Shown: positions 15,059 through 60,532, counted from the first letter of the stretch. The stretch is 64,000 nucleotides of DNA from an uncultured Bacteroidales bacterium (GCA_964504265.1 CAZDEU010000002.1:22473-86472); one strand, 5' to 3'. Translations and numbers: made by a program. The notes: generated from the letters alone by a model not told the origin.

Positions 15059-15063
15059 AATTC

Positions 15064-15738: not shown

Positions 15739-16516
15739 AATTAGCTAATTTTTTAACTTTAATATTTTGATCAAATATATCTTGCAAATAATCTAATGTA
15801 CATTGATTAAACATTTCAGGTTGAAGTTTGTTCTTTCCATGGCCACCTGCATGATGTATAATTTTAATTATTTTATTATTAAGCTGCAACCCATTTGGTG
15901 TAACTATTATATCTTTTAAACTATCCCAATGAGTAACATTACCAGACAAGCAACTTACACCATAATAAACATTTGTATCAATTGCATCTAATATTTTACA
16001 TTTAAATTTGCCACTTGCAACAATCATATTTAATACAGTTTGTTCTTGAAAACTATATTTATTAGCACGTGCAATATTTTCATTTACCCAATCAATAATA
16101 AATTGTTTATTTGTAATAGCAGTAAATCCGGCATTGACATATAATTGAGGATTTAATCCTTCTATATCACAAATGTATGTATCTTTACCTGCTTTATTAT
16201 AATCATTGTTATTTCTAACGCATAAAACATCATAATTACTATATTCAAATAATTCAGTTAATGGTGTAGTAATAATGCAATCGGCATCAAAATGAACCAC
16301 CATATCATATTCATCAATTAATATATTTGATATAACTGGGTGTATTGTATTCCAGTTAAATTGATTATTTAATGCAAATATACTATTAATCATTTTATCA
16401 CCAAATACATAAAAAGGAATATCAGGATGAAATCTTTTAGCTGATTTTACTAATTTATCAGCACCTATGCTATAAAACCAATTATCTGAAACGTGTGTGC
16501 AAAAAGCTATTTTCAT
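15710..16516 (-). CDS. putative DxD glycosyltransferase (GT8-like), paralog 1
   Basis: FHPDIPFYVF and HFDADCII. The N-terminal half aligns with the adjacent ORF 16513-17283. Confidence 0.5.
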   Translation of the reverse strand: MKIAFCTHVSDNWFYSIGADKLVKSAKRFHPDIPFYVFGDKMINSIFALNNQFNWNTIHPVISNILIDEYDMVVHFDADCIITTPLTELFEYSNYDVLCVRNNNDYNKAGKDTYICDIEGLNPQLYVNAGFTAITNKQFIIDWVNENIARANKYSFQEQTVLNMIVASGKFKCKILDAIDTNVYYGVSCLSGNVTHWDSLKDIIVTPNGLQLNNKIIKIIHHAGGHGKNKLQPEMFNQCTLDYLQDIFDQNIKVKKLANFGYQYEVCN

Positions 16517-17283
16517 CCTAAAATTGAAGTTTCAATAAAATGAACAACATTTCCATTAAATAATTCACTTGGTGCAGGTTTATTAACACCACCTCTAGCA
16601 AAATGATATGCTTTAACTATTTTACCATCTAATTCTAAATGATCATTAACTACTTCAATTTGCTTTTCTCTACCAAGAGATGAACAACCATAATAGCATT
16701 TAAAATCAGGATTATTATATTCAAAATGGCCGTCTAATACTTTAAGCTTATATGGCAGCATATGGCACAATATATTTAATACATCATTTTCTTTATTGCC
16801 AAATATATCTGAATATTTTAAGCTAGCATATTCATATTGATTCCAAAATAATTTAGATGTACTAGCAATTAAGCCACCTTGTATATATTTTTCATATGGA
16901 ATAAATGTATTACTTGAAAATGTTCCACAAGTATTTGCAAATGTATTAGTTCCTAATGCTGAATTTAACCAAACGTTGTAATTTGATGGAATTGCAACAT
17001 CATAATCACCTTCAAGTATTTCTGTTAATGGTGCTAATATCAAATGATCTGCATCAATATTAACAACTAATTCATAATCATTATATAATAACTTAGCAAA
17101 TGATGCTTTTGAATTATAAAAATTTAATCTATTATCGGTTGCAAATAGATCGTTTATTTCTTTTTGCTTAAACACTACTAAATCTATATCAGGATGAAAA
17201 TGTTTAAAACTTTTGATAAAATCATCAGTTCTGCATCCCTTGTAGTGGGAATCTCCTATTATTGTATAAAAACATGTTTTCAT
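16513..17283 (-). CDS. putative DxD glycosyltransferase (GT8-like), paralog 2
   Basis: FHPDIDLVVF and NIDADHLI. Tandem paralog of 15710-16516. Confidence 0.5.
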   Translation of the reverse strand: MKTCFYTIIGDSHYKGCRTDDFIKSFKHFHPDIDLVVFKQKEINDLFATDNRLNFYNSKASFAKLLYNDYELVVNIDADHLILAPLTEILEGDYDVAIPSNYNVWLNSALGTNTFANTCGTFSSNTFIPYEKYIQGGLIASTSKLFWNQYEYASLKYSDIFGNKENDVLNILCHMLPYKLKVLDGHFEYNNPDFKCYYGCSSLGREKQIEVVNDHLELDGKIVKAYHFARGGVNKPAPSELFNGNVVHFIETSILG

Positions 17284-17284
17284 T

Positions 17285-17992
17285 TTAATTTATTTTAATT
17301 GTACAAAACATTCCATCTGCATTAAAATATTCAACATTATAGCCATATTTACGAAATAATGATGAATAAAGGTCTCTATATATATCAAAAGTAGTATCAT
17401 TTATTTCATGTACTTCTATTAATATTTTACAAACATGTTTGCTTAAAAATTCTATTGTTTTTTCAATTAAAACAGTTAGTTCAGAACCTTCTATATCCAT
17501 TTTTAAAAAATCAATTTTAGATAAATTAAATTTTAACATAATATCCGGAATTGTTATTGAATTAACTGTAATTTTATTAGAACCATGCCCACATTGCAAT
17601 GAATTCGTTGTTGTGTTTGATGAATATTCATAAAAATCAATAATGCCAGTTTTATTTGCTACTGCAGCTTGTAATCTTATTACATTATTAAACTTTCCAG
17701 TAATTTGTTCATTTAAAGTAAAATGATGTGGGGTTGGTTCAACTGTTATAATTTTATCAGCCCATGGAGTTACGTGTAAAGCAAATAATCCAATATTACC
17801 ACCCAAATCTAAAATAATTTTATCATCTTTCGAAATATAATTAGCATAATAATTAAGGTCATTAAATTGGTGTAATATTTCTTGTGTACAATTTTTAATA
17901 TCATTAAAATGATCAATTAATTCTGGTGTATTTAATTCAATAATATAATCAGTTCCATCAATTAATTTCTCTATTACTTTATCATCATTCAT
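17285..17992 (-). CDS. SAM-dependent methyltransferase (FkbM-like)
   Basis: ILDLGGNIGLFALH (SAM motif I) and LKMDIEGSE, which is typical of the FkbM family. Confidence 0.7.
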   Translation of the reverse strand: MNDDKVIEKLIDGTDYIIELNTPELIDHFNDIKNCTQEILHQFNDLNYYANYISKDDKIILDLGGNIGLFALHVTPWADKIITVEPTPHHFTLNEQITGKFNNVIRLQAAVANKTGIIDFYEYSSNTTTNSLQCGHGSNKITVNSITIPDIMLKFNLSKIDFLKMDIEGSELTVLIEKTIEFLSKHVCKILIEVHEINDTTFDIYRDLYSSLFRKYGYNVEYFNADGMFCTIKIN

Positions 17993-18456
17993 CTCGTTAA
18001 GTTTAAATAAGTTGGTAGTCCATTGTATAAGAAAGCATTAAATTTTGCAGTCAAATCTTCATTGTCGACTGGGTATATGCTTAATATGTTCTTAAAATTA
18101 TAATATGATTGATCTTCATAATGTGAATAACCATCATGCTTATAATCATCACCGCGACCTCCGCCAAGTAATTTAATTGGTATATTTTCATGGTCAACAT
18201 ACGTCCTTAGCAATTCAAATGGTCTTAATATTAAAAAAGGAGATATACTATAAGCAATTGGAATCTTTCCTGAATCTGCTAATCCTATAGCCATTCCAAT
18301 CATTAATTGCTCTGCTGCACCTACATTAATAAAATTATTAGGAAAATCTTTTTTAATATCATCCCACATTTTATACCCTAAATCAGCTGTAATTACAATA
18401 ATATTATTATCTTTTTCAATAGCATTATATAGCAATTGTTTTGCTAATTTCCTCAT
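17989..18456 (-). CDS. transketolase-family protein, C-terminal (pyrimidine-binding) subunit
   Basis: ITADLGYKMW..FINVGAAEQLMIGMAIGLA..GKIP. Confidence 0.75.
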   Translation of the reverse strand: MRKLAKQLLYNAIEKDNNIIVITADLGYKMWDDIKKDFPNNFINVGAAEQLMIGMAIGLADSGKIPIAYSISPFLILRPFELLRTYVDHENIPIKLLGGGRGDDYKHDGYSHYEDQSYYNFKNILSIYPVDNEDLTAKFNAFLYNGLPTYLNLTR

Positions 18457-19114
18457 ATTCAGAATTATTTAATATTTTATAATGAGCATCAATACATTTG
18501 CCATTTAAATTGATTGATTTTAATATTGGATGATTCATATCAAATCTATGTATATTAATAGTTGGTAAAAATGCACGTAATCTTTTTGCTAATACATCAT
18601 AATCAATATATCTATATGCTGAAGTACCATTATAATTGACATGTATTTCAATATTATTAATTTTGTTATCACTAATAAATTGTAATGATTCCCAAACTAT
18701 TCCTTCACTACATTCACCATCTGAAATAATACAATATACTTTTCTATATTTATCAGCAACAGCAAAACCAGTTGCAATAGCAATACCACAACCAAGACTG
18801 CCGGTTGATGCATCTATATAAAAGCTTTTAGTTGGATGTATGCCATTTTCTAAATAATGAAATTCAGCATTATAATATGGTTTGCAAAAATATTCTAATA
18901 CAACATATAATGCTAAGCCAGCATGACCATTTGATAATACAAATTTATCTTTCTTTAAATCAATTTTTTTATAAATATTATATATGATTGGTAATGAAGA
19001 TATGCAGCTATTTAAATGAGATAAATTATGTTTATAACTTATATCAATTATGCGTTTTTCTAACTGTTTAATTATTTTTTTGTCGTTGAATTTGAATGTA
19101 TTTTTTAATTCCAT
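18425..19114 (-). CDS. transketolase-family protein, N-terminal (TPP-binding) subunit
   Basis: SNGHAGLALYVVLE, TGSLGCGIAIATGFA and ISDGECSEG. Confidence 0.8.
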   Translation of the reverse strand: MELKNTFKFNDKKIIKQLEKRIIDISYKHNLSHLNSCISSLPIIYNIYKKIDLKKDKFVLSNGHAGLALYVVLEYFCKPYYNAEFHYLENGIHPTKSFYIDASTGSLGCGIAIATGFAVADKYRKVYCIISDGECSEGIVWESLQFISDNKINNIEIHVNYNGTSAYRYIDYDVLAKRLRAFLPTINIHRFDMNHPILKSINLNGKCIDAHYKILNNSEYEEISKTIAI

Positions 19115-19931
19115 TTTTTAAATGAGTGCTAAATTGAAAATCATAACAGGAAATAGCATAATCCATATCAGCAACCCAATTGTTATTATCAAATACTCTT
19201 AATTGTTTTGCTTTCTTATATTGTAAATTATAATTGTATATTTCTTTAAAAATATCAAACACTTCATAATTTGAAGTTTTAATACCGGTTCCAAAATTAA
19301 CAATATCGCCGGCAGCCTTTGTGCGATTACTAAACATTATATTAATTATATTTGTAACTACATCATCAATATAAATAAAATCATGTGTACCTTCTGATAT
19401 GCTAGGTTCTATATTATTTTCAAAACAATTATATAATGTAGGAATAAATCTGTGTGCAGGTTCATGATTACCATAAACTGAAAATGGACGTATTGTTACA
19501 ATTGGTTTTTTAAATGCAGTTGAATAATCTTTGCAAAGTAATGTTGCTGTATGTTTTGTTACTTCATACATTGTCCTTGGTTTGCAAATTGACGTTTCTT
19601 TCATTGGTTCTGTTTGATAACCATATTCTGAAGAAGATCCAATATTTACAAATAATTTATAATTAACATTTCTTGAAGCTTCAAGCAATTTATATGTGAA
19701 TTCAACATTTGATTTAAACATTTTATGTTCATCATATATTTCAGCAGCGCAGTGAATAATATAATCAGGTTTAAATAAATCAAAATATGACATATTTGAT
19801 GCATCACTATGATTATTAAAATCATATTGCCTTGATATATTGCCAATTACAGCGTCAGGGTCAATTAATTTAATTCTTTCAATTAAATTTTTGCCAATAA
19901 AGCCGGTACCGCCAGTTATAACGTATCTCAT
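19068..19931 (-). CDS. NAD-dependent sugar epimerase/dehydratase (extended SDR)
   Basis: VITGGTGFIGKNL Rossmann motif and a YxxxK-type YEVTK. Confidence 0.85.
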   Translation of the reverse strand: MRYVITGGTGFIGKNLIERIKLIDPDAVIGNISRQYDFNNHSDASNMSYFDLFKPDYIIHCAAEIYDEHKMFKSNVEFTYKLLEASRNVNYKLFVNIGSSSEYGYQTEPMKETSICKPRTMYEVTKHTATLLCKDYSTAFKKPIVTIRPFSVYGNHEPAHRFIPTLYNCFENNIEPSISEGTHDFIYIDDVVTNIINIMFSNRTKAAGDIVNFGTGIKTSNYEVFDIFKEIYNYNLQYKKAKQLRVFDNNNWVADMDYAISCYDFQFSTHLKNGIKKYIQIQRQKNN

Positions 19932-20431
19932 TGTTTTTCTCCTACAACCATGAATGAATTATTTAAATCAACTCCACTTGCAAATATATTAACATAACCA
20001 CGTTGTTGCATGTAATCTGTTATAATTTGTGGAGTAAATATATGCAAATGTTTTGTATTGTTCCAAGGACGCCAATATTCTTGGCTGTAATCAGGTAAAT
20101 ATAAAAATAATATTCCACCAGATTTTAGATTTTGCCACCAATAGTCCATAACATCAACCCAACTATTTCCATCCAGGTGTTCCAAGCAGTGACTGCTATA
20201 TATATAATCTAATCCTCCAATTTTATGTGGAATATTCATTGCATGCCATTCGTTACCAAACTCAATATCAATTGGAAATGCACCAGGAAATGCCCAATCC
20301 TTTTTCTTGCAACCAATATCTGCCCCATATCCTTTACAAAAATGTTTTGCATATGGAATAGCAAATTGACTTGCATTTCCTTCTGCTTGAAAATGTGGAT
20401 AATTTTTTCCTTTATAATTAATTAACTCCAT
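19928..20431 (-). CDS. class I SAM-dependent methyltransferase
   Basis: GADIGCKK and SSHCLEHL motifs, with a GGILFLYLP post-I region. Confidence 0.6.
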   Translation of the reverse strand: MELINYKGKNYPHFQAEGNASQFAIPYAKHFCKGYGADIGCKKKDWAFPGAFPIDIEFGNEWHAMNIPHKIGGLDYIYSSHCLEHLDGNSWVDVMDYWWQNLKSGGILFLYLPDYSQEYWRPWNNTKHLHIFTPQIITDYMQQRGYVNIFASGVDLNNSFMVVGEKQ

Positions 20432-20826
20432 TATTTATTAAAATGTGAAAGTTCATGTTCAATATTACGATTTAATGCAGCATCTTCAGTAAATTTAGCA
20501 GGATATCTTTTTTGTAGTTTTTCAATATTTCCTTCCATTATATCATTTAATGTTGTTTGCAATACATTAACTGCTACTGCTATATACCACATTACATCAC
20601 CAGTTTCTTCTTTTATATTGATAATATCAATTGGTTTGCCATAAAAAATATGCTTTTTTAATTGGTCAACAAATTCACCACTTTCTGTTGCTAATCCCAT
20701 TGCTGCATGTAATAATCTTACTGTTTCAGGATTTTGTAACCTTTGCATGATAATATTCATATCAGCTGATTCAGTGATTCTTGCTAAATTAGCATAATTT
20801 TCTGATGTAACTTTAGATTGTTTCAT
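20431..20826 (-). CDS. mazG: MazG-like nucleoside triphosphate pyrophosphohydrolase
   Basis: GLATESGEF and EETGDVMWYIAVA (EExxD metal motif). Confidence 0.8.
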   Translation of the reverse strand: MKQSKVTSENYANLARITESADMNIIMQRLQNPETVRLLHAAMGLATESGEFVDQLKKHIFYGKPIDIINIKEETGDVMWYIAVAVNVLQTTLNDIMEGNIEKLQKRYPAKFTEDAALNRNIEHELSHFNK

Positions 20827-21445
20827 AAAAACTGTTTTGTTTGCGTTGTCTAATAATATCTTTTGTATGATTTAAATAAAATAAAGGATTATTTTGATCA
20901 AATCTTGTAATTGAATTAAATCCAGCTACATGTTCATGTATAACACCTTCCCATTTTATTTCTTTTTTATTTTTGTATAAACGATATTGATAATCTGGAA
21001 AATTTACATAGCCATTAACATCAACAATCCAATTCCACTTCTTAATATCCGCAGGTGTTATACCGTTAACGATATTAATTCTTGGAATTCCAAATACTTC
21101 AATATTATTATTTGCTTCAAGTATTTGTTTAATATTTGCAAATAGATTAACATCATCAATTAATTCATCAGCATCAATATGAAATATATAATCACCAGAA
21201 CATAGTTTAGATGCATAATTCCTTTGGTTAGCAAAATCTTTATTAAGTGGATTACAATCTATTATAATATTTTCAAATCCATCAACTAATTTTTTTAAAT
21301 CATAATATGCAGAATCAAATTCTAAACCATCATATAAAATTATTATTTCATCATTAATATCCTTATAATCTTTCAGTTGACGAAGTAATCCAGTTAATTC
21401 TTTGTAATCATTTTGATTATATAATATAACATAACTTATTTTCAT
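20813..21445 (-). CDS. family 2 glycosyltransferase
   Basis: ISYVILYNQND N-terminus and HIDADE DxD motif. Confidence 0.7.
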   Translation of the reverse strand: MKISYVILYNQNDYKELTGLLRQLKDYKDINDEIIILYDGLEFDSAYYDLKKLVDGFENIIIDCNPLNKDFANQRNYASKLCSGDYIFHIDADELIDDVNLFANIKQILEANNNIEVFGIPRINIVNGITPADIKKWNWIVDVNGYVNFPDYQYRLYKNKKEIKWEGVIHEHVAGFNSITRFDQNNPLFYLNHTKDIIRQRKQNSFYETI

Positions 21446-22014
21446 TATTCGTTTTCGTTTTTATTTGGTCTGATATAACGTGATACAATTTTCTTTTTAT
21501 CATCAACTTGAGCATTTACTGATTTAGACATTTGTTTATTATAGGAATCTTGCAATATATCTTTCTTATCAGTAAATTTATAATCTAATGCACGAATCAT
21601 TTTGATATTCATCGTGTTGAATGTCCTATAAGTATTATCAAAAGATGTATTCAATCGTTTTTTTAACTCAGTTAAGTAAAACTTTTTTGAATCTTTTTTA
21701 TCCATTATAAGTTTCTCAATTGCTACTTTTCTGATAGTTTTCATATGTATAGAATACTCTAATCCAATATCATCAACAAACCTATCAAAATACATTGGAT
21801 TCATATATTCTAATGTCAATGCATGCATTAATTTATGCGGAAACGGCCCAAATCCTGGGTGAAGAATTACAACATAATAATATTTGAAAGTTCTTGAATC
21901 AAGTGGTTTATAATATAATTCGCATAGCAACCCACTTTCTAAAAAAGTTCTTGGAATTGTATATTTTCCTAAGATTCGCGTTTTATAATGCGAAGTATAA
22001 ATTAATTCACCCAT
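21445..22014 (-). CDS. hypothetical protein (189 aa)
   Basis: ORF with start/stop coupling to its neighbours. Confidence 0.6.
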   Translation of the reverse strand: MGELIYTSHYKTRILGKYTIPRTFLESGLLCELYYKPLDSRTFKYYYVVILHPGFGPFPHKLMHALTLEYMNPMYFDRFVDDIGLEYSIHMKTIRKVAIEKLIMDKKDSKKFYLTELKKRLNTSFDNTYRTFNTMNIKMIRALDYKFTDKKDILQDSYNKQMSKSVNAQVDDKKKIVSRYIRPNKNENE

Positions 22015-22445
22015 TACTCAATCATATATGATTCAAATAATCTTAAAGCATCTTCAAATTCATTCCATTTAAATGCAATTGCAGTTTCAACGTCGAGTCT
22101 TGTTTCATAATACTCATCAATTTTTCCTGGAATTGGATATTTAATTCTTTCTAATAATGGAATTGCTGCTATTTTTGCTACATGCCATCCATAAGGATGT
22201 AATTCATTTTCGGTACTGAACATTGAATATATTGCACCAACCCTTTCTAAATATAATGAAGTTGGAATCCATATATAACCATCATTATCAACGACATGTA
22301 TATCTCTTATAAACAATGGTGATTGATTAAATAGTTGTTCAGCTTCCGGCGTATTTACTAGGGCTTTAGATTTTAAAAATCCACACTTCATGCAAACTGG
22401 GTAGTCTTTATTTATTATATCGTTTGAACATTTTTCACATTTCAT
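22014..22445 (-). CDS. hypothetical protein with N-terminal zinc ribbon (143 aa)
   Basis: MKCEKCSN...CMKCG. Confidence 0.6.
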   Translation of the reverse strand: MKCEKCSNDIINKDYPVCMKCGFLKSKALVNTPEAEQLFNQSPLFIRDIHVVDNDGYIWIPTSLYLERVGAIYSMFSTENELHPYGWHVAKIAAIPLLERIKYPIPGKIDEYYETRLDVETAIAFKWNEFEDALRLFESYMIE

Positions 22446-23725
22446 TTTTCTATTTTTTTAAGGGTTGGCAAATTTAATTCTAAATATTCTGGTTTCTTTG
22501 GAATATATTTATTTAAAATATCTAAGAATTTTTCATCCATAGCAACTGTTGAATAATTTTTAATAACGTTATTTCTTTGTATTTTAGCATTATTTAAATA
22601 CTTTTGATAATTATCATATACTGCACGAATTTTATGGCCTGCAGCCACATAATCAACAGTAAACCAACTACTTTCTGGTAATATAAATCCTTTCCATACA
22701 GCACTCTCATGAACTTTTTTAACTACTCCATTCAATGGAATAAATCCGGGTGTTACAAGAAATTCTAATTGACCACTCCAATTGCTACATAAAATAGGTT
22801 TGCCAGTTACGCTAAACTCAGCAAGAGGTCTACAGTACCCTTCGCCTTTTGTAAACGATATAAGAGCTTTAACTTTTTGATGATTGTAAAGCTGGTTCAT
22901 TTCCGCATCAGTTAAATTCCCATGCAATAAATACACATCAGGTAAATCATTTTCAATATCAGGATTTTCTTTTATTACTTCTTTTTTTATTTGTGAAATT
23001 TTGTTAAGCATGTTTGTTTCGTCCTGCGGACTAAAATTGGCTCCTGATGTTTTTAAAATTAATCCAGGTTTATGATTATTTATATATGCTGCAGTTTGCA
23101 TGAAAACTTTAATGGCCATTCCAATGTCCTTTCTATCTTCACCAGTAATTCCGCTAAGCCAGTGGCCGCATACAAGATAATTAAAATCTGGTAAGTCTTT
23201 AAAATAATTATCTATTTTTGATATATCTTTTGTTTTAAAATATGTTGTAAGATCCACCCCCTCAAAAAGTACGACGATTGGAACCTCTATTTTAATAACA
23301 TTTTTATTTTGTTTGTTTTGCCATTGTGAATTTTCAAATACTTGTTTAGTAAACTTGCTGGGTGTCAAGATTAGATTCATTCGATTACACCCTTCAATAA
23401 ATTCAGCACTCGCAATTGTCGTTTCTATACCAGCTGTAATGCCAATATTATAATTTCCAATTGGTTGAAATTCATTTGGAACTGATATTTGAATAAATAC
23501 ATCCGGTTTTCTAGGAATTTGGCCATTTTTATTAATTAATATTTTAATTGATTCCTCTAATGGATAGTCCATGGGGCATTCTCCCCAACGCGTTGATGCT
23601 ATATGATATTCCCATTCAGGATATATTTTTAATAATGATCTAACTATATCTCTTGAATGTTGACCATACCCAGATACTGTTTCAACTGGTGCTTGTATCA
23701 AACAAAGTGTTTTATCGTCTAGCAT
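22442..23725 (-). CDS. putative GT-B fold glycosyltransferase
   Basis: Its size, position next to the GT1 enzyme, and the C-terminal FTKGEGYCRPLAEFSVTGKPIL resemble the GT1/GT4 E-x7-E region. Confidence 0.5.
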   Translation of the reverse strand: MLDDKTLCLIQAPVETVSGYGQHSRDIVRSLLKIYPEWEYHIASTRWGECPMDYPLEESIKILINKNGQIPRKPDVFIQISVPNEFQPIGNYNIGITAGIETTIASAEFIEGCNRMNLILTPSKFTKQVFENSQWQNKQNKNVIKIEVPIVVLFEGVDLTTYFKTKDISKIDNYFKDLPDFNYLVCGHWLSGITGEDRKDIGMAIKVFMQTAAYINNHKPGLILKTSGANFSPQDETNMLNKISQIKKEVIKENPDIENDLPDVYLLHGNLTDAEMNQLYNHQKVKALISFTKGEGYCRPLAEFSVTGKPILCSNWSGQLEFLVTPGFIPLNGVVKKVHESAVWKGFILPESSWFTVDYVAAGHKIRAVYDNYQKYLNNAKIQRNNVIKNYSTVAMDEKFLDILNKYIPKKPEYLELNLPTLKKIEK

Positions 23726-25179
23726 ATAATAACTGGTTTATAAGGTTTAAATTTTGTTGCATTAATTAATTTAAAATGTGGTTGAGGTTTCCAATTATTG
23801 AAAATATAATCTGTATAACGTATTACATTATATCCCATATATTCAGCACTCATCATACTTTCTTCACCCTTTATCCATGCATAACCAACCAAACCTCTTC
23901 TATCTCTTTCTTCTTTTGATAAATTATAAACAGTTTCAATAGCATTTGCTACATCATTAATACTGCATCTATCATCATAAATATATGGAGTTGGCACAGA
24001 TCCTTGCAATGATATTGATGCTGGAAATATTGGTATTGCCCATTCACCACAATTTTTATATTTACCTTCATGATTACTAGGGAATGATTCATCAAATTCT
24101 ATCCATTTGTTTTGATTATCATTAAATCTGCATTGGTCTTGTAATCCACCAGTAACATTATTTATAATCATTGTTCCAGCTGATAAACTTTCCATACTAG
24201 AAAGACCGAATCCTTCGTTAGAAGCTATATTTATAGTTGCATCAGCAATATTGTAATACAAATTCATATCATTGTCGCTAATTATACTGCTAATTAACAT
24301 TATTTTGCATTCTGAAGCTAGATCTGTTATTAAGCTTAATAAATTAGTACCATTTTCATCAACTGCTGGTGTATGCATTATAAGAATACATTTGTCTCTT
24401 TTTTCAGCCGGAATTTTCTTTAAAAATCTTTTAAATGCTAATATTACATCACCCGGCATTTTTCTTCGTATGTTACGATTATTCCAAAATAATATAAATT
24501 CAGAATCAATTTCATTTTGTTTTTTAAATGCTAATTTTTCTTCATTACTAACGGGAAAATATAATTTGCTATTTGCCCCATGCGGTACATAAGCCAAATT
24601 TACTTTATCAGTATTATATTCAAAATCAAAATTAGTAGATATATCAGTATATGATTTATTTCCTAAAACATTTTTAACTAATGCATGCGTTTGGCGACTT
24701 ATATTCATTATTAAATCACATGCACGATATGAATCTCTATTGTATAACGGAGCAGGAGGGCAATCCCAAATGTTGTAATATAAAATTGGAATGTTTTGCC
24801 TTATTTCATGTGACATATTATATAACCATTGCCATTGTCTTGGGTCTGTAAAATGTAGTATTGCATCAGGTTTTTCAATATTTATTAAAGTTCTTAATAA
24901 ATCAGGAGTACCGTAATTATCATGAGGATATAATTTTACATCAGCCTTTTCTATACCAGCTGCTTCTGCAACATCTTGACTCATATCATATACTTTACCT
25001 TTATCAGGATGACCAATAGCTGCGCCAACTTGTACCCAATTAAAATAATGTGCTGTATTAATTATAATTTGTTTTGACATTGTTCCGACACCTGATGGTA
25101 GACGCATGTCATCACTTAAAAATAATATTTTTTTTCTTTGTTCTATTGGAACTATGCCAGTAACTTGTTTAACATCCAT
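23719..25179 (-). CDS. group 1 glycosyltransferase (GT-B)
   Basis: SNEGFGLSSMESLSAGTMIIN is the classic GT1/GT4 motif. Confidence 0.8.
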   Translation of the reverse strand: MDVKQVTGIVPIEQRKKILFLSDDMRLPSGVGTMSKQIIINTAHYFNWVQVGAAIGHPDKGKVYDMSQDVAEAAGIEKADVKLYPHDNYGTPDLLRTLINIEKPDAILHFTDPRQWQWLYNMSHEIRQNIPILYYNIWDCPPAPLYNRDSYRACDLIMNISRQTHALVKNVLGNKSYTDISTNFDFEYNTDKVNLAYVPHGANSKLYFPVSNEEKLAFKKQNEIDSEFILFWNNRNIRRKMPGDVILAFKRFLKKIPAEKRDKCILIMHTPAVDENGTNLLSLITDLASECKIMLISSIISDNDMNLYYNIADATINIASNEGFGLSSMESLSAGTMIINNVTGGLQDQCRFNDNQNKWIEFDESFPSNHEGKYKNCGEWAIPIFPASISLQGSVPTPYIYDDRCSINDVANAIETVYNLSKEERDRRGLVGYAWIKGEESMMSAEYMGYNVIRYTDYIFNNWKPQPHFKLINATKFKPYKPVIIC

Positions 25180-27347: not shown

Positions 27348-28559
27348 TTATAAAGAATTAATCTTTATTGGATTAAGCACTAATCCTATATCGGTTGGCA
27401 CGTATGCATCACCGAATTCTTTTCTTCCAATGTTGAGACTACCGTTAATGTCTGCGTTAATTAATAAATTTTTTGAAGTTTTAAATAATCCTCTTTTAAT
27501 GCGATTACCTAAATAATTTTCATGTTTACAAATTTTTTCATTATCTAAAGCAGAACACTTCGAAGTGTAATTTTCAGTTATAACTTTGCAATTAATTCCT
27601 TCCAATTTACATTTATACTCTATCATTTTGATAAATGTTAAATGCGGAATACTTACAAATTGCTGGTTATTTCTCTTTCCTAAATTTACTTCTTGCTTCC
27701 ATTCAGGGTTATAACCTACTACTAAACTACTTACATTATTTTTTGCTAAATAATTGACTATAATTCTGGAAGATTTATGAAGATAGTCTTTGATTTTGTT
27801 ATTTCGCTTTGTTGTAAAGTTTGTAAGTTTTTTACTTGTTTTCTTTTTGTGATTTTTTTCTAAACTACATTGTATTTTTGCTTTATGTTTATTATAATAT
27901 TGATTAATTGATTTTAATGGTTTGCCATTAATTATTATTGCATTATTGTTATTAAATGTAAGAGTTGCCAAATTATTAATACCTAAATCTATTGCTGAAT
28001 AATTATTGTTTGTAATTAATTCTTTTTCAGGAACTTCATATACAACTTCTATAGTGTAGTTGCCAGATTTAGGAATAATTCTAACTTCTTTTATTTTTGT
28101 TGTTATGTTTGTTTTTATTGGTTGTAGATTAGTTTTTTTTGGAAAATGAACAAACCCATTTTTTAAAATTTTAGTATTAAATCCTGAAAAAATTAGAATA
28201 TTTCTGCCTTTTAATTTATCTTTATATTTTGGAAATTTTGGACAACCATTTAACGATGTTTTATCCTTTTTATATTTTTTTATTAATGCAAAGAATGATT
28301 TAATATTATGATCTAATAATAATAAAATTTGTTGAGAAACTTGTGAATTTAGTTTTCTATAATCATTAAATTGTTCTTCTTTATTTTTCAGTATTTTTTC
28401 AATTGCATGATATCTTAAAGTTTTGCCAGTTAATAAATAATGTTGCTTTATTTCATATAAAGCTTGATTATAAAGATTTTTAGATAGAAAGCATAATGCA
28501 TCAATTTGTTTCCAAGATTGGTGATGTTTTGATATATTGTGTTGTTCTACTAAAATCAT
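27348..28559 (-). CDS. tnpB: TnpB-like RNA-guided nuclease (IS200/IS605 OrfB, IS1341-type; no tnpA)
   Basis: RuvC-I SAIDLGINNLATL; VVGYNPEWKQEVNLGKRNNQQF; ENYTSKCSALDNE; and GNRIKRGLFKTSKNLLINADINGSLNIGRK, the characteristic C-terminal RuvC-III block. The canonical CxxC pairs of the Zn finger are not present. Confidence 0.85.
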   Translation of the reverse strand: MILVEQHNISKHHQSWKQIDALCFLSKNLYNQALYEIKQHYLLTGKTLRYHAIEKILKNKEEQFNDYRKLNSQVSQQILLLLDHNIKSFFALIKKYKKDKTSLNGCPKFPKYKDKLKGRNILIFSGFNTKILKNGFVHFPKKTNLQPIKTNITTKIKEVRIIPKSGNYTIEVVYEVPEKELITNNNYSAIDLGINNLATLTFNNNNAIIINGKPLKSINQYYNKHKAKIQCSLEKNHKKKTSKKLTNFTTKRNNKIKDYLHKSSRIIVNYLAKNNVSSLVVGYNPEWKQEVNLGKRNNQQFVSIPHLTFIKMIEYKCKLEGINCKVITENYTSKCSALDNEKICKHENYLGNRIKRGLFKTSKNLLINADINGSLNIGRKEFGDAYVPTDIGLVLNPIKINSL

Positions 28560-29942: not shown

Positions 29943-30464
29943 TTAAATAATTTTAAACATTTTATCTTGCATTACAGGCCACCAATATCTACCACCATTA
30001 TAATTTTCATCTTCTGGGAATTTTGGTAAATAAAATTCTCTATTCTTTTCAATTAGTCTAGCACGATGTGACCTATGGAAATTTTCATTATCTAACCAAA
30101 AAGGAAAAGGATAATTATTTGCATTATACCTGTAATCTTCCCATTTTATAAAGTTTAGTATTTCGCCATCACCATCTATAAATTCCGGATTTGAAAATGT
30201 ACAATATTGGTAATGCAACGTTGTATTTATTTTATGTACTTTTTTGCAATGTAAAAGAAACATATTATAATAATGTTTAAGCAAATCCTCATAACCAACC
30301 CACATTTGAACTGCAGGATGATTTATATAACGATGTGACTTACTTGTTACATCTGTTAAGCATTCGATAATTTGTTTTGCTTCTACGACTTGTTTCCAGC
30401 AACGTTTTTTGTCTAAAACTTGCGCTGATAGTTGGAAGCTGCTGTAGGGAAGGAATGTCTGCAT
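29943..30464 (-). CDS. hypothetical protein; MQTFLPY...HPAVQMW family (often annotated pyrimidine-dimer DNA glycosylase-like)
   Basis: N-terminal MQTFLPYSSFQLSAQVLDKKRCWKQVVEAKQI and NHPAVQMW were recognised from memory only. Confidence 0.35.
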   Translation of the reverse strand: MQTFLPYSSFQLSAQVLDKKRCWKQVVEAKQIIECLTDVTSKSHRYINHPAVQMWVGYEDLLKHYYNMFLLHCKKVHKINTTLHYQYCTFSNPEFIDGDGEILNFIKWEDYRYNANNYPFPFWLDNENFHRSHRARLIEKNREFYLPKFPEDENYNGGRYWWPVMQDKMFKII

Positions 30465-35400: not shown

Positions 35401-35658
35401 TTAATTTCTTCTAGCAGAATCAATTGCATCTTCTTCACTACAATCTTGTTCTCTTAAATTTTCAATCACTTCTTCACGTAAATCAATTTGATTATTAATT
35501 GGTCTACCCCACCATTCTTCACGCATTTGTAAAGTTTTATTATAATTATCTAAACAACGTTGTAAATATTCAGCAAGAATAAAATCTGGTGTATCACTTT
35601 CATTCTCAAGTGAACATTGATTAATTAACGTTTCTAATTCTTTTTTAAAATTTTTCAT
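35401..35658 (-). CDS. hypothetical acidic protein (85 aa)
   Basis: ORF directly after the DpdA-like gene. Confidence 0.55.
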   Translation of the reverse strand: MKNFKKELETLINQCSLENESDTPDFILAEYLQRCLDNYNKTLQMREEWWGRPINNQIDLREEVIENLREQDCSEEDAIDSARRN

Positions 35659-35661
35659 AAT

Positions 35662-36873
35662 TTAAAATTCAAAAAATGTTTTAATACTTTCTTTATCACT
35701 TACATCAGTAGCATCAGCACTGATTTTCAAATATATATTTTTGTATTTTTCATACACTTCAAGTGGTTTATTTACACCCTCAAACATTTCTTTGATACTA
35801 CAATAAACTTGCCACCAATCATTGTTGAAAACTTCTTTAATTGCTTGGTCATCTGAATCTATAATTGTATTAATTTTCTTTATTGCATCTAAAAATACAT
35901 ATAGATTATGCAAAGTAGTTATTTTAACAGAACGTCTATCCCATGGAGCTAAATCAACCCCAACAGTATGGCCTTTACATGCAATACAATCAAGCAAACA
36001 TGGTAAACTAGCATCGTTATCATATGTTACACTGCCATCTTTTGGAAAATATAATGACTTCCAAGTTAATTTATCCCAATTAAATCCATAATAAAATGTT
36101 CCATAATTAGTTGCTCTACTTGGCGAACTGCTATCAGTCGTTAATACTATTTTATGGCTAAATCTTTTATTAACAAACTTTTGCATTATAGCAAGCATTA
36201 ACAAATGGTCTATCCCCGTTATGCCTAAATAATGAATCCATTTATTTTTTGGGTTATCAAGTTCACCGTTTTCAAGTAATAATGCCATTGTAAATGCCAT
36301 TCTTTTTATATCACGGCAATTTGATGGAGCCCAACCTTGGAAATCAAATCCTTTAACTGCTTTGTACCACGCAACATATTCAGCTTCATTTGACGAACTT
36401 CCTTGCAACACATTTAAAAAATCTGTTTTACCTGATTGTTTCTTTTCAAATATTTTAAAATTTTCTAAACTAATATCAAGTGCTTCATTAAATCTTCCTA
36501 AATAATTTAAACGTGGCGGAATATCTAAGTTCATAGCAATATCTGAATTAGTTTCTAACCATTCAAATATTTCATCACGTAATAATGTTGACCATTTTAA
36601 AGCACCAGTTGCTATTTGATATCCACCACTATCACCCATTACAAGTGAATTCTCTAATCCCCATGTTTTTCGAAAAGTCTTTTCTTTATAATTATGGCCT
36701 GCTGTTGTAAGATAAAATTTATATCTCCATGCTTCAGGCATATCATCTGAATAATATCGAATTGGTATTTTATTATTAACATCTAATGGATTAATAATTT
36801 CATTAAGTTTTAGCCATTGGCGCATTCCACCAGTAGACATTGATGGAAAGTAAATAAATTTATGTTTATTCAT
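35662..36873 (-). CDS. dpdA: tRNA-guanine transglycosylase-family enzyme, DpdA-like (7-deazaguanine DNA base exchange)
   Basis: GDSGGYQ (the TGT catalytic DSGGFQ motif) and a Zn site CLLDCIAC...TLHNLY (CxxxCxxC-x25-H). The phage context points to DNA rather than tRNA as the substrate. Confidence 0.75.
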   Translation of the reverse strand: MNKHKFIYFPSMSTGGMRQWLKLNEIINPLDVNNKIPIRYYSDDMPEAWRYKFYLTTAGHNYKEKTFRKTWGLENSLVMGDSGGYQIATGALKWSTLLRDEIFEWLETNSDIAMNLDIPPRLNYLGRFNEALDISLENFKIFEKKQSGKTDFLNVLQGSSSNEAEYVAWYKAVKGFDFQGWAPSNCRDIKRMAFTMALLLENGELDNPKNKWIHYLGITGIDHLLMLAIMQKFVNKRFSHKIVLTTDSSSPSRATNYGTFYYGFNWDKLTWKSLYFPKDGSVTYDNDASLPCLLDCIACKGHTVGVDLAPWDRRSVKITTLHNLYVFLDAIKKINTIIDSDDQAIKEVFNNDWWQVYCSIKEMFEGVNKPLEVYEKYKNIYLKISADATDVSDKESIKTFFEF

Positions 36874-38062
36874 TATGATTTATTAAGTATTTAATTGCTT
36901 CTTTTTCGTGCCATATATTGTATTCGCGGTCTATTCCGTTAACTATAATATAACACATTAATTCTCTTCCATAATCAGAATTTTCAATGATATTATTAGT
37001 ATACAAATTAGTTTCATTATCACTTGTATAATGAATTGCATTATCTAATGTTTGTATAGCACTTTCAACATTAAATGCTGTATATCTTAATCTTGGTGGT
37101 ATCATTTCTTTAAATGACCTAAAATCAGGATATACTAAATTACATCTAAATATTGATGCTTCTACACCAGTAAATGAAACATAATCTTGTAATGCACTAT
37201 TAAATTGAACACTTGCTGAAGATAGTTCTTCGTAATATTGTTCCTTTGTTAAATTTTCTTTTATTTTAAATCTTGGTTCTTCTTGTGCAAATTTATATAA
37301 TTCATCAACTATACCGGGCATGTTACTTCTTAACTTGGATGCACTAGTAGTACAAACCCATTCCCATCTCGGATATCTTTTTAAGAATTTCTTTGCAACT
37401 TCTAACATAAAAAATGGATTCTTTTCTGAATCATATCTACTAGTATATACAACTTTACTAGTTTTAACTTTATCAGTTTTGTTAATTTTATTTTTAACTA
37501 ATCTAGAATCAACTGTTAGAGATACAACATGAATAGGGCATTCAAATCCAGCAGCTTTTAACTCATCTCTGTGAATTGTTGATGCAACGAAGATTGCGTT
37601 AAGTCGCTTACTTAAGCCAATTTCATATGGCCTCATCCAATTTCTCATGTTATATGTGAAGTCAAATTGATCCACGGACTGTGCCCAGCACGTAGCATAC
37701 ACATTAATTTTAATATTATATAAATCAAGTGCATAAAAAATACTTTCTACACCTGCAGTCCAAAATTCTTGCAAAAATATTGTGTCACCATTTTTAACTT
37801 CACCTGCAGCTATTTTATTAAGAAAGTTTTTACATTGTTGTAATGCAAACTTCCCGCGGCCGATGGCATCTAGAACTTGCCCCACCTGCACATCTCCATT
37901 AGCTGAATCATCTCCTTCTATTACAACAAAATTAATTTTATTTTTGTACTTTTCAAATGTCGCAGGTATCCACTCGTTAGATAATTGATGCGTGTAACGC
38001 GACTTTAATGATTCCAATGGGAAATAAAATACATTGTGTTTTTCTTTAATAACGTTATTCAT
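36866..38062 (-). CDS. hypothetical protein, possible GT-B glycosyltransferase
   Basis: VVYTSRYDSEKNP and YVSFTGVEASIFRCNLVYPD resemble the GT1/GT4 C-terminal domain. Translationally coupled to the DpdA-like gene. Confidence 0.35.
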   Translation of the reverse strand: MNNVIKEKHNVFYFPLESLKSRYTHQLSNEWIPATFEKYKNKINFVVIEGDDSANGDVQVGQVLDAIGRGKFALQQCKNFLNKIAAGEVKNGDTIFLQEFWTAGVESIFYALDLYNIKINVYATCWAQSVDQFDFTYNMRNWMRPYEIGLSKRLNAIFVASTIHRDELKAAGFECPIHVVSLTVDSRLVKNKINKTDKVKTSKVVYTSRYDSEKNPFFMLEVAKKFLKRYPRWEWVCTTSASKLRSNMPGIVDELYKFAQEEPRFKIKENLTKEQYYEELSSASVQFNSALQDYVSFTGVEASIFRCNLVYPDFRSFKEMIPPRLRYTAFNVESAIQTLDNAIHYTSDNETNLYTNNIIENSDYGRELMCYIIVNGIDREYNIWHEKEAIKYLINHNE

Positions 38063-38071
38063 ATTTAATTT

Positions 38072-38419
38072 TTAAATTTCTACAATAGCTCCATTTTCTG
38101 CATCTTCAAGCACTTCCACAGATTGGCACCCGAATTCATTTAATATTTCAGTTGCAATCATTTCACATGACATATTATTAAACATTAAACAATCATATGT
38201 TTTGGAATAATATTTCTTTTTAAGATAATCAATTATAAATCTCTTAAAGAGTATAATCTCTACATCGCGATCTGCATGTGATACAAGTCTTTTTACTTTT
38301 ATGTAAAATTGATGCCTATGCAAATGCTGAAGAAATCCAACTGTTTGTGCTTTTTCAAATGCATCTTTCCATTGATGCAAACCCTCAATCTGAATCGATA
38401 TTACTACAAATGTCTTCAT
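38072..38419 (-). CDS. QueD/PTPS-like T-fold protein (divergent)
   Basis: The layout IEGLHQW / LQHLHRHQFYIKVK / DRDVEIILFK / MSCEMIATEI / VEVLEDAENGAIV parallels QueD (AAHxL / HGHxFxVxV / DFxxLK / TSExLA / VxExxxxxA). HRH replaces HGH. Confidence 0.45.
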   Translation of the reverse strand: MKTFVVISIQIEGLHQWKDAFEKAQTVGFLQHLHRHQFYIKVKRLVSHADRDVEIILFKRFIIDYLKKKYYSKTYDCLMFNNMSCEMIATEILNEFGCQSVEVLEDAENGAIVEI

Positions 38420-38421
38420 AA

Positions 38422-38853
38422 TTAAATTTTTATGGTATCAAACTTATAACTATCAGCATCTACGTGTTGCATAATATGCTTAGCTACAACATAAGTATTG
38501 TATTCCCCATTGTCAATTGTAATGCAATCTTGTTTTTTTAAATAATCGATGTCGCACGTTGGAACTTGCATTCTATAAAGAATATGTGCATGATTGTAAA
38601 TTCTTTTTGGAATTTTACGTAATGTTTTATCATTTGCTTCTAATGAAATTGCAATTTTAGTTGCATCCATAATATCTGCAATTAAATCCCATGATTTTTT
38701 ATTTGCAATACAAGCTTCAACCCATTCATATGTAAAATATAAATGAGGATAATCTTTATAATTTTTTGGAATTTCACTACGAATAAATAATGTTGGAATA
38801 TCAGAAAAAGTGCCCTCCACTTCAATTCCTGCCCAGTAAGCAAGTCCTTTCAT
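38422..38853 (-). CDS. hypothetical protein (143 aa)
   Basis: First gene of the 38853-35401 run. Confidence 0.55.
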   Translation of the reverse strand: MKGLAYWAGIEVEGTFSDIPTLFIRSEIPKNYKDYPHLYFTYEWVEACIANKKSWDLIADIMDATKIAISLEANDKTLRKIPKRIYNHAHILYRMQVPTCDIDYLKKQDCITIDNGEYNTYVVAKHIMQHVDADSYKFDTIKI

Positions 38854-38887
38854 AACTTTTAAAATTTTATAACTTTTACTTTTGTGA

Positions 38888-38904
38888 CAATATATATGTC
38901 AAAA
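38888..38904 (-). promoter_or_regulatory. conserved upstream motif (minus strand TTTTGACATATATATTG)
   Basis: 35 nt upstream of ATG 38853. Identical 17-mer to 60558-60574. Confidence 0.45.
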
Positions 38905-39064
38905 TTTTTGAAACAATATAAAAAAATATGCTTTTCTATAATTATTTTACGAAATTATTAGAAAAGCATTAAAACCTTTAATTCAACCAAGACTCGCAAT
39001 TAACTTCAATAACCTAGTTATATTCATTAACCCTGTAAGTTTATTTGGATGCAACAGTTTAATT

Positions 39065-39481: not shown

Positions 39482-39973
39482 TTAAAATTCAATCAATTTT
39501 TTTACTTCTTCATGCAAATTTTCTATTGTACTATTATTATCAATTACTAAATCATATTTATAATTATATACATTTTTGTCTGCATGATTATCAGGAATAT
39601 GTTTTAATCTTTTTTGTGCATCTACTAATAAAGTAACACATTGATCACCAAAATATTCTTTAAATTTAGCAATTTCTTTAGGTTCCCTGCAATGAATAAA
39701 TATTACTGAATATTGATTTTGTAAATTAACAAAGTTAATTAATGATTTAAATATTCCATCATTATATTCTGTAATTAAATCTTTTAAATCAGATAAAAAC
39801 TTTCTTGATTTATCATCTTTAGTTCCGTCCCAACCTATACTTGTAGCTATTTCTTTAGGTATTTCAACAGTTGATTTATTAAAAACTATTTTATTTTGCA
39901 ATTTAGTAAATATTTCAACTACAGTATCTTTGCCTGATCTAGCTGTTCCATTTATTATTATAACTTTTTTCAT
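39482..39973 (-). CDS. P-loop kinase, dNMP kinase-like
   Basis: IIINGTARSGKDT Walker A, typical of phage deoxynucleotide monophosphate kinases. Confidence 0.55.
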   Translation of the reverse strand: MKKVIIINGTARSGKDTVVEIFTKLQNKIVFNKSTVEIPKEIATSIGWDGTKDDKSRKFLSDLKDLITEYNDGIFKSLINFVNLQNQYSVIFIHCREPKEIAKFKEYFGDQCVTLLVDAQKRLKHIPDNHADKNVYNYKYDLVIDNNSTIENLHEEVKKLIEF

Positions 39974-40186: not shown

Positions 40187-40747
40187 TTAAAAATTTATAT
40201 CTACACAATCTATATTAAAGTCATTAAACATAATACAATCACCTGAAAATAAATATAATCCACTCATTCCTTTATTTTCAAATTCAGATATCAATGCTGA
40301 TTCAAAGGTTTTTGGCTTTTGAGTTCTTTTACCACACGCTTCAACAATTAAGTTTCTTTTTGAACTTCGCAATGGTTTAACTTTTTTATTGGTAAAAAGC
40401 ATTAAATGCTCTGTATTGTTTCTAAAATGATTTCCAAGACCATAAAATAAATTACCTTTAGTCGTAAGCTTTGACCATGTAACTAATGTTTTATATTTAT
40501 AAGTTTTAAAATCACTATTAAATACATTTTCAATCATTGAATTAGTAACCCATATGAACAAATATTTAGCATTAATTTTGTCAAAAATTAAATTTAAATC
40601 AGTATTATCCCATAAATTATATGATAGTTGATTTATTTTTAATTTTGGTCTTATATCATCATATGACCAAGGCGGGTCAACAATAGCGTAATCATATATA
40701 ACTTCTTCTTTCAAGAAATCTTTATAATCTGCATGTATTTGTTTCAT
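40187..40747 (-). CDS. MT-A70 family DNA N6-adenine methyltransferase
   Basis: DYAIVDPPWSY (catalytic DPPW). Confidence 0.8.
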   Translation of the reverse strand: MKQIHADYKDFLKEEVIYDYAIVDPPWSYDDIRPKLKINQLSYNLWDNTDLNLIFDKINAKYLFIWVTNSMIENVFNSDFKTYKYKTLVTWSKLTTKGNLFYGLGNHFRNNTEHLMLFTNKKVKPLRSSKRNLIVEACGKRTQKPKTFESALISEFENKGMSGLYLFSGDCIMFNDFNIDCVDINF

Positions 40748-60019: not shown

Positions 60020-60532
60020 TTATGAATTTAATTTATATATCGATGTTAATTGTCTCATTATTTGATTATTATCTAACCCATATCCAACTACAAAGTCATC
60101 TTTAGCAACTTTATAACCAAAATAATCTGGGTTAATATTAACTTTTCTTGCATCTGGTTTATCTAATAAAGATACAATAGTTAATTTTTTTATTTTGCAA
60201 TTTTCTAAATGTTCTTTAATGCTTTGTATTGTTTTTCCTGTATCTACAATATCTTCAATTAAAATTATTTCTTTATTAGTTATACTTGCCATTTCTGGAA
60301 ATAAACTATACTTGATTTCATTTGATTGTTGATTATCTTTATATGAAGCAACTTTAATAAATTCAACTGTATGATCGAATACTAATTGTTTCATTAAATC
60401 GGTAGCAAAAAATATTCCGCCTGTTAATGTAATTAAACATACAGGCGGTTCCATGTAATAATTACTATTTAGAATTCTTGCTATGCGTGATACTGCTATG
60501 CTAATATCAACTTCACTGAGTAATTTTTTCAT
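60020..60532 (-). CDS. hpt: hypoxanthine-guanine phosphoribosyltransferase
   Basis: PRPP motif IILIEDIVDTGKT and C-terminal FVVGYGLDNNQIMRQL. Confidence 0.88.
   Translation of the reverse strand: MKKLLSEVDISIAVSRIARILNSNYYMEPPVCLITLTGGIFFATDLMKQLVFDHTVEFIKVASYKDNQQSNEIKYSLFPEMASITNKEIILIEDIVDTGKTIQSIKEHLENCKIKKLTIVSLLDKPDARKVNINPDYFGYKVAKDDFVVGYGLDNNQIMRQLTSIYKLNS

Follow-up and report, generated by a model that had tools for sequence, protein, structure and literature searches.

A putative operon for tailoring and inserting 7-deazaguanine, with a conserved glycosyltransferase partner, in a T4-like phage contig

What does a glycosyltransferase do beside enzymes that are predicted to place a 7-deazaguanine base in phage DNA? 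The locus that raises this question lies in a stretch of 64,000 nucleotides from an uncultured Bacteroidales bacterium (GCA_964504265.1, CAZDEU010000002.1:22473-86472), which was analysed at its full length and is hereafter called the window. Five closely spaced open reading frames (ORFs), all on the minus strand from 38853 to 35401, encode in turn a 143-aa protein (p143), a 115-aa protein, a 398-aa glycosyltransferase (GT), a 403-aa protein related to tRNA-guanine transglycosylases (TGTs) and an 85-aa protein (p85). A first-pass annotation, made from the sequence alone, had described a DpdA-type operon for deazaguanine DNA modification in which a GT-B-like gene and a QueD-like gene stand beside the transglycosylase gene. 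This description was supported by our analysis: the five ORFs were confirmed on that strand at the coordinates it gave, and the motifs it quoted (GDSGGYQ, CxxxCxxC...H-N-L-Y and HRH) were all found in the sequences. Judging from sequence, we propose that the operon would encode that half of a 7-deazaguanine DNA-modification pathway, independent of QueC, which tailors and inserts the base in a T4-like phage, a reading to which we give a probability of roughly 0.78. The core of DpdL and DpdA is already known; what is new is the obligate GT4-type glycosyltransferase and an orphan-fold protein as partners, and a limited literature search returned no paper on either of them.

Enzymes encoded by the five genes

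The 403-aa protein matched TIGR00449 (E 1.3e-5) and TIGR00432 (E 2.9e-6), three TGT models in all matching at E 1e-3 to 3e-6, and PF01702 was matched by 19 of the 39 members of its family, with a best E value of 3.5e-7. The GDSGGYQ motif occupies residues 80-86, and D81-S-G-G-x-Q86, D117, D247-S-S and N323 were invariant in all 39 family sequences. The Zn site of the window protein is complete (C292-x3-C296-x2-C299, then H322-N-L-Y), while the Cys triad of this site is conserved in only 22 of the 39 members. The catalytic Asp pair, the Zn site and the model matches bear out the earlier description of this protein as a DpdA-like TGT.

When its relationship to known DpdA proteins was measured with hhalign, the 403-aa protein reached a probability of 96.8% to ACP17 DpdA2 and 39.8% to that of nt-1. 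In a phmmer matrix it grouped with the proteins of PA5oct, Sinorhizobium phage Phosso and Vibrio phage 2.275.O (E 1e-18 to 1e-24), and this clade matched the DpdA2 proteins of ACP17, BUCT-ZZ01 and nt-1 at E 4e-4 to 0.04, compared with E 1e-49 to 1e-69 within DpdA2. ACP17 DpdA2 is itself 34-36% identical to the experimentally validated DpdA2 of nt-1 and VH7D, which insert preQ0, preQ1 and, weakly, 7-carboxy-7-deazaguanine (CDG) into DNA. Like these enzymes, to which it is linked via ACP17 and BUCT-ZZ01, the window TGT is long (400-600 aa) with a DSGG...DSS layout, although the kinship is distant. Homologues of the 403-aa protein have Que genes as neighbours in both PA5oct and Vibrio phage 2.275.O. 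On these comparisons, the protein is a long DpdA-type (TGT-superfamily) transglycosylase of a separate clade distantly related to DpdA2, and is predicted to be a DNA guanine/7-deazaguanine exchange enzyme. Assignment to DpdA3 was rejected, with an hhalign probability of 6.6% to phiST CGPG_00065 and no phmmer match. Similarity comparison also found the protein unlike the short DpdA on another phage contig of the assembly (C1, described below) and unlike the host bacterial TGT.

The 115-aa protein had been annotated as a divergent QueD-like protein with HRH in place of HGH. Its QueD likeness stood, and it can be refined to the already named DpdL, which was defined from phiST, a phage of Cellulophaga, as a paralogue of QueD whose CxxxHGH motif has become LxxxHRHxF (Cui, Hutinet et al., NAR 2023, PMC10516641). 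The window protein reads L-QHL-HRH-Q-F, which fits this signature in place of the CxxxHGH of QueD, and is 35.7% identical to phiST DpdL over 97% of its length (E 6e-12) and 46% identical to the homologue in Chryseobacterium phage MA9V-3. It matched phrog_17812 at E 8e-21, and in other phages a DpdL hidden Markov model scored between E 1e-31 and E 1e-53. No match of the 115-aa protein to Pfam PTPS was found with hmmscan at E up to 1; the T-fold/PTPS likeness of DpdL was obtained by HHpred (PMC10516641). The DNA of phiST, in which DpdL is present, contains 100% 2'-deoxy-7-deazaguanosine (dDG), and DpdL was proposed as the CDG decarboxylase behind this genome, a predicted activity (PMC10516641). 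Its sequence thus identifies the 115-aa protein as DpdL, a QueD/T-fold paralogue that lacks the Cys and a predicted CDG decarboxylase.

The 398-aa protein was modelled with AlphaFold2 (AF2) at pLDDT 87.1 and pTM 0.87. Foldseek matched the model to retaining GT4-type enzymes (GlgM, glycogen synthase, TreT, BshA, MshA, PimA and SenB), with a probability of 1.0 to more than 50 GT4-type structures and template modelling scores (TM) of 0.55-0.66 for the top matches. Within the family, PF13692 was matched by 23 of 36 members and PF00534 (Glycos_transf_1) by 21 of 36. The window protein itself gave no PF00534 match, while eight of nine distant homologues did: two exceeded the cut-off of 26.4 bits, one equalled it and the others matched weakly, to E 0.089. 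Sequence and profile searches of the family against PDB sequences gave nothing useful. The invariant residues R209, K214 and D293-x7-E301 can be likened by eye to the donor-binding Arg/Lys pair and E-x7-E of GT4 enzymes, and the N-terminal (acceptor) domain is strongly conserved across the family. The GT-B fold, on which the first-pass annotation had made its decorated-base idea depend, was confirmed by the AF2 model and Foldseek, and on this model the 398-aa protein is a genuine GT-B/GT4 glycosyltransferase.

Several known enzymes offer a comparison for such a function. HuiG, from huimycin biosynthesis, is a GT-B enzyme that N-glycosylates a 7-deazapurine base. In animals, QTMAN/GTDC1 mannosylates queuosine in tRNA. 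These enzymes and the T4 alpha- and beta-glucosyltransferases, whose acceptors are modified bases or nucleic acids, share with the window GT the GT-B fold and the (here predicted) use of a nucleoside diphosphate (NDP)-sugar donor, but show no detectable sequence kinship to it. A QTMAN-like identity was not supported, as QTMAN_N (PF12038) gave no match at E up to 1 for nine homologues and in the family scan.

The 143-aa protein belongs to a family of 58 clusters at 50% identity, with proteins of about 140 aa (exhaustive HMMER search) and the invariant residues G9, E13, G14, H37, D109, Y136 and D139. Its AF2 model had a pLDDT of 95.1, and Foldseek-type searches returned no close structural neighbour, the best match being at E 0.23 in PDB and at E 1.3e-3 with TM 0.30 in BFVD (TM at most 0.33). 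Searches against Pfam and PDB sequences gave no match. The N-terminal W-G-x-E-V-E-G-R...T-L-F-x-R aligns with the QueE start QGEG...F-x-R over about 25 residues at an hhalign probability of 1-5%, which is a hint from sequence of deazapurine or pterin binding and nothing more. A stripped-down QueE or radical SAM enzyme was rejected, since there is no Cys cluster and QueE lies outside the top 50 Foldseek matches. As modelled, p143 is apparently a new fold and a conserved member of the module.

Operon structure and conservation in other phages

The GT and TGT genes share 8 nt (ATGAATAA) where the stop of the one meets the start of the other, and the translational coupling of the two genes that had been claimed is in keeping with this overlap. 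The remaining intergenic spacers are 2, 9 and 3 nt, the last of which precedes the p85 gene. Upstream of the p143 gene, a hairpin with a 9+5 bp stem followed by a U-run was found downstream of an Hsp20 gene, inside the 211-nt gap 38854-39064. Its RNA fold had an energy of -13.7 kcal/mol (z -3.98), and none of 200 shuffled sequences was as stable; a simple terminator scan had overlooked it because it has few G-C pairs. The hairpin and U-run at this place therefore make the five genes look like a separate transcription unit, and from the sequence p143-DpdL-GT4-DpdA-p85 look like one operon. A sigma-70 promoter scan was uninformative in such AT-rich DNA, and a PADLOC search returned zero matches.

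The window belongs to contig C2 (89 kb, 28.5% GC) of an assembly of 3.2 Mb in 353 contigs. C2 encodes gp32, UvsX/RecA, a DnaB-type helicase, clamp, clamp loader, tail sheath, gp19 and a baseplate protein, a set of replication and tail genes that therefore indicates a T4-like myovirus.

For the synteny census, 80 IMG/VR loci were retrieved with the GT profile; a GT relative was encoded by 277 viral contigs. Upstream genes were counted in the 54 loci with at least 1.5 kb and the 24 loci with at least 7 kb of upstream sequence. The TGT gene directly followed the GT gene in all 80 viral loci, an adjacency that is therefore beyond chance. The p143 gene was found upstream of the GT in 53 of the 54 loci, and DpdL in 39 of them. 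The first-pass annotation had listed the 143-aa product as an unknown protein; by its conservation it belongs to the module and is no bystander. A p85 homologue was seen only in the closest relative (locus L015, with a TGT 88% identical) and in none of the 80 viral loci; judged by this distribution, p85 is lineage-specific. In metagenomes, the GT and TGT families each comprise at least 700 clusters at 90% identity.

Further upstream, the 24 loci encoded QueD (24/24), QueE (24/24), FolE (22/24) and a phosphoribosyltransferase (PRTase) of the hypoxanthine-guanine (HGPRT) type (10/24), and none encoded QueC. In these relatives, a T4-type DNA polymerase gene lies between the Que/FolE genes and the module. 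Since FolE, QueD and QueE are present and QueC never is, the base would derive from CDG or 7-deazaguanine (DG) and not from preQ0. The 'preQ0-type' pathway of the first-pass annotation is therefore replaced by a QueC-independent CDG/DG branch.

The loci (IMG/VR loci L016-L095) fell into two groups by their DpdL. Where DpdL was present, the TGT Zn site was CCCH in 26 of 27 loci. DpdL-negative loci instead had N-H-[S/C/Y]-N at the Zn-site positions in 12 of 12, with the precursor genes in a different order, QueD-QueE-FolE-PRT. This split may reflect two substrate types or simply two lineages. The window module is of the DpdL-positive, CCCH type and has the predominant gene order. As a separate observation, an intein (Pfam Intein_splicing) is present in the clamp-loader AAA+ gene that lies downstream of the module in a metagenomic relative (locus L014, 12318-14855).

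Cultured phages carry the same genes in shuffled orders. ACP17 (QueD, FolE, p143-like, DpdA2, GT, DpdL, QueE) shares four genes with the window, namely those for the p143-like protein, DpdA, GT4 and DpdL, here beside QueD, FolE and QueE; unlike the window it has the order p143-DpdA-GT-DpdL and a bona fide DpdA2, and the published work on it makes no mention of the GT or the small protein. The corresponding stretches read FolE, p143, GT, DpdA2, DpdL, QueE in Xanthomonas phage BUDD; QueD, DpdL, p143, GT, TGT, QueE, FolE in Burkholderia phage BCSR5; and QueE, PRTase, QueD, FolE, DpdA2, DpdL, GT in BUCT-ZZ01. In Phosso, DpdL, GT, FolE and QueE lie together and the TGT is at a separate place. PA5oct (TGT, GT, DpdL, PRTase-like, QueE) resembles the window in that its genes for a TGT of this clade (E about 1e-22), the GT and DpdL follow one another; QueE and the PRTase are encoded close by. 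No p143 was detected in the locus stretches examined of PA5oct (13 kb; here unlike the window), BUCT-ZZ01 and Phosso.

Other systems lack these partners. Vibrio phage 2.275.O and nt-1, relatives from the same TGT clades that contain QueC, have neither GT nor DpdL. Like the window, phiST has a DpdL orthologue (36% identity, LxxxHRHxF), a QueC-independent logic and a module placed among replication genes. It differs in having FolE, QueD, QueE and DpdA3, whereas the window TGT is not a DpdA3 and contig C2 is without those three precursor genes, and in having MazG and an AAA_18 ATPase while lacking GT4 and p143; the MazG and ATPase of phiST have no detectable counterpart in this genome. On this distribution, GT and p143 track the QueC-less branch and not one DpdA clade.

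Two published experiments bear on these phages. When dpdA and dpdL of ACP17 were co-expressed in Escherichia coli, no dDG was formed, and the authors suggested that further enzymes are needed (PMC10516641). As the GT and p143-like genes of ACP17 are adjacent to these two insufficient genes, GT and p143 are candidates for the missing enzymes. PA5oct DNA resists restriction enzymes with G in their sites and is sensitive to END nuclease, and this resistance indicates a modified G (PMC12191111).

The proposed pathway and its alternatives

In the proposed pathway, FolE, QueD and QueE, encoded by unrecovered phage genes or, for QueD and QueE, by the host, would make CDG, which DpdL would decarboxylate to 7-deazaguanine. 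The DpdA-type enzyme would then swap guanine in replicated phage DNA for 7-deazaguanine, and the DNA would be protected from restriction. The GT4, aided by p143 or acting after it, would most likely transfer a sugar from an NDP-sugar onto the deazaguanine, either on the free base, as HuiG does, or on the base in DNA, as the T4 glucosyltransferases do on 5-hydroxymethylcytosine (hmC). Of all the steps, this transfer of a sugar is the least certain, and the probability given above for the pathway as a whole does not extend to it. That the base is decorated, raised at first as speculation, gains strong support from the conserved gene neighbourhood; by analogy with known enzymes the GT4 may add a sugar to deazaguanine, a tentative proposal that we judge less likely than not. 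That phages with the module (ACP17, PA5oct, BUDD, BCSR5, BUCT-ZZ01 and hundreds of uncultured marine T4-like phages) carry a sugar-bearing 7-deazaguanine in their virion DNA is possible, and about as tentative.

Several observations weigh against the pathway as proposed. Fifteen of the 54 loci are without DpdL and still keep p143, GT and TGT. The Pfam TGT score of the 403-aa protein is 18.8 bits, under the gathering cut-off (GA) of 26.3, and profile searches of its family against PDB sequences returned nothing. DG has no side-chain hydroxyl to receive a sugar, and phiST makes dDG (PMC10516641) without a GT. Finally, FolE, QueD and QueE were found neither in the window nor on the whole 89-kb contig C2.

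The lack of an acceptor group leads to the best of the alternatives, in which the end product is plain dDG, as in phiST, and GT4 and p143 help to make or hand over the base, perhaps by way of a short-lived intermediate that is glycosylated or bound to protein, or act as partners of the long DpdA. Such a need for helpers would fit the failure of ACP17 dpdA and dpdL in E. coli, the gene overlap and the constant GT-TGT adjacency would suit a complex, the N-terminus of p143 weakly resembles the substrate-binding start of QueE, and the fully dDG-containing DNA of phiST was made with DpdL. Against this, the residues of the donor site and a strongly conserved N-terminal acceptor domain are retained in the GT, which is what an active transferase would show, and phiST-type systems make dDG with neither GT nor p143. 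We regard a plain dDG product as a serious but doubtful explanation.

The HGPRT-type PRTase raises a different route, which would precede replication: this enzyme would load a deazapurine onto phosphoribosyl pyrophosphate (PRPP), and the product would be reduced, phosphorylated and incorporated by the polymerase, with the TGT secondary or unrelated to DNA. PRTases homologous to that of the window lie inside the FolE-QueD-QueE cluster in 10 of the 24 relatives, BUCT-ZZ01 and PA5oct, the module adjoins a DNA polymerase gene in relatives, the operon is preceded at a short distance by a dNMP-kinase-like gene, and the tubercidin pathway provides a precedent. However, most loci are without the PRTase, as opposed to a TGT in every one, related DpdA2 enzymes insert bases directly into DNA, and the PRTase might just as well salvage the guanine that base exchange sets free. 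This route is improbable.

It is decidedly improbable that the GT is unrelated to deazaguanine and only co-regulated with its neighbours, acting instead on a different base of the DNA, on a virion protein or on the host envelope. The same phage does have a separate large sugar-tailoring/GT cluster at 14.3-25.2 kb. However, the GT adjoins DpdL and/or DpdA, in shuffled order, in Bacteroidota-type and marine phages and in phages of Pseudomonas, Acidovorax, Xanthomonas, Burkholderia, Sinorhizobium and Synechococcus hosts, and is absent from the QueC-containing relatives nt-1 and Vibrio phage 2.275.O.

The missing precursor genes bear on whether the module has a substrate. The first-pass annotation had reported FolE, QueC and QueE as absent from the window, which was confirmed and holds across C2, and had proposed a search of the rest of the genome. 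In this search, phage-type FolE, QueD and QueE were found in the assembly only on contig C1 (105 kb, 24.9% GC), and QueD, QueE, QueC and a bacterial TGT on host-like contigs. C1 was rejected as a supplier of FolE, QueD, QueE and QueC to the same phage: it encodes a short DpdA, a clamp and clamp loader, a DnaB helicase and PolA for itself and differs in GC content, and is therefore a second phage. C2 measures only 89 kb, while related viral contigs that bear the module reach 112-197 kb, so the phage genome was probably only partly recovered. As C2 is without FolE, QueD and QueE, the precursor would therefore be supplied by the host or by phage genes missing from the recovered sequence. In L015, the closest relative, the arrangement is split in the same way, with none of the three genes within 10 kb.

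The same absence on C2 and near the L015 module could mean that the module here is a remnant without a substrate. This is very improbable: the five ORFs are intact and every family-invariant residue is kept, in addition to the probably incomplete phage genome and the QueD, QueE and QueC genes of the host bin. Least probable of all is that the TGT-like enzyme modifies tRNA or other RNA, as membership of the TGT superfamily would allow, given that the window has no tRNA genes, a bacterial TGT is encoded by the host, DNA is the substrate of the nearest characterised relatives (nt-1 and VH7D DpdA2), and PA5oct, which carries a member of the clade, has restriction-resistant DNA.

The phage contig C1 carries a canonical cluster. 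At C1:59566-64813 (locus L006, 7564-12814), genes for QueD, QueE, FolE and a 271-aa DpdA are followed by extra genes and then by QueC. These three extra genes encode a radical-SAM protein, an aldo/keto reductase that ends in a Cys-rich C-terminal tail, and a HAD-like protein.

Other window genes and significance

The features of the operon and two further genes of the window are collected in Table 1. The HGPRT-type gene lies between the baseplate and tail-tube genes, 22 kb from the operon; its product is a possible accessory of the module, a link that we only infer. The MT-A70 adenine methylase named in the first-pass annotation was recovered by Pfam at the same coordinates, and a second layer of DNA modification by this enzyme is likely.

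Table 1. Coordinates of the operon genes, the operon boundary and two further genes in the window
Feature	Coordinates	Strand	Basis
143-aa protein, first operon gene	38422..38853	-	ORF
115-aa protein, DpdL (predicted)	38072..38419	-	motif and similarity to phiST DpdL
398-aa protein, GT-B/GT4 glycosyltransferase (modelled)	36866..38062	-	AF2/Foldseek and family Pfam matches
403-aa protein, long DpdA-type transglycosylase (predicted)	35662..36873	-	TGT models and catalytic residues
85-aa protein, last operon gene	35401..35658	-	ORF; PHROG families without assigned function
Terminator-like hairpin, 5' operon boundary	38930..38967	-	sequence and RNA fold
HGPRT-type 6-oxopurine phosphoribosyltransferase	60020..60532	-	TIGR01203 E 1.3e-41, Pfam Pribosyltran E 2.8e-21
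MT-A70 family methyltransferase	40187..40747	-	Pfam E 3e-12

Upstream of the operon, beyond the Hsp20 gene, a 163-aa P-loop dNMP-kinase-like protein is encoded at 39482-39973 (-). In L015 a DNMK gene stands directly before the p143 gene, and in phiST the AAA_18 ATPase gene stands between DpdL and DpdA3; a kinase may be loosely associated with DpdL systems. The sugar-tailoring cluster at 14333-25179 (-) encodes FkbM-type and class I methyltransferases, a split transketolase, an NAD-dependent epimerase/dehydratase, a GT2, a 486-aa GT4 and other proteins, and might supply or extend a glycan. The window also encodes a solo TnpB (OrfB_IS605 with a Cas12f1-like TNB domain) at 27348-28559 (-), adjoining a Dda/PIF1-like helicase, and a DenV-type pyrimidine-dimer glycosylase at 29943-30464 (-).

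Modification of DNA with 7-deazaguanine is a major counter-defence of phages, and the published scheme of DpdL and DpdA for the QueC-independent branch could not be reconstituted. Outside the phiST type, DpdL and DpdA are mostly accompanied by a GT and a small orphan-fold protein. These two are the obvious candidates for the 'missing enzymes', and a hitherto undescribed DNA base may be their product. The sugar-bearing base, if real, would be the first known case of a glycosylated purine in DNA, made by the GT4 and p143, and the DpdL-positive and DpdL-negative sub-types would give two different bases. Carriers in culture (ACP17, PA5oct, BUDD, BCSR5 and BUCT-ZZ01) make the question directly testable. 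The answer would bear on phage therapy, for which PA5oct is a candidate, and on the sequencing and restriction of such DNA.

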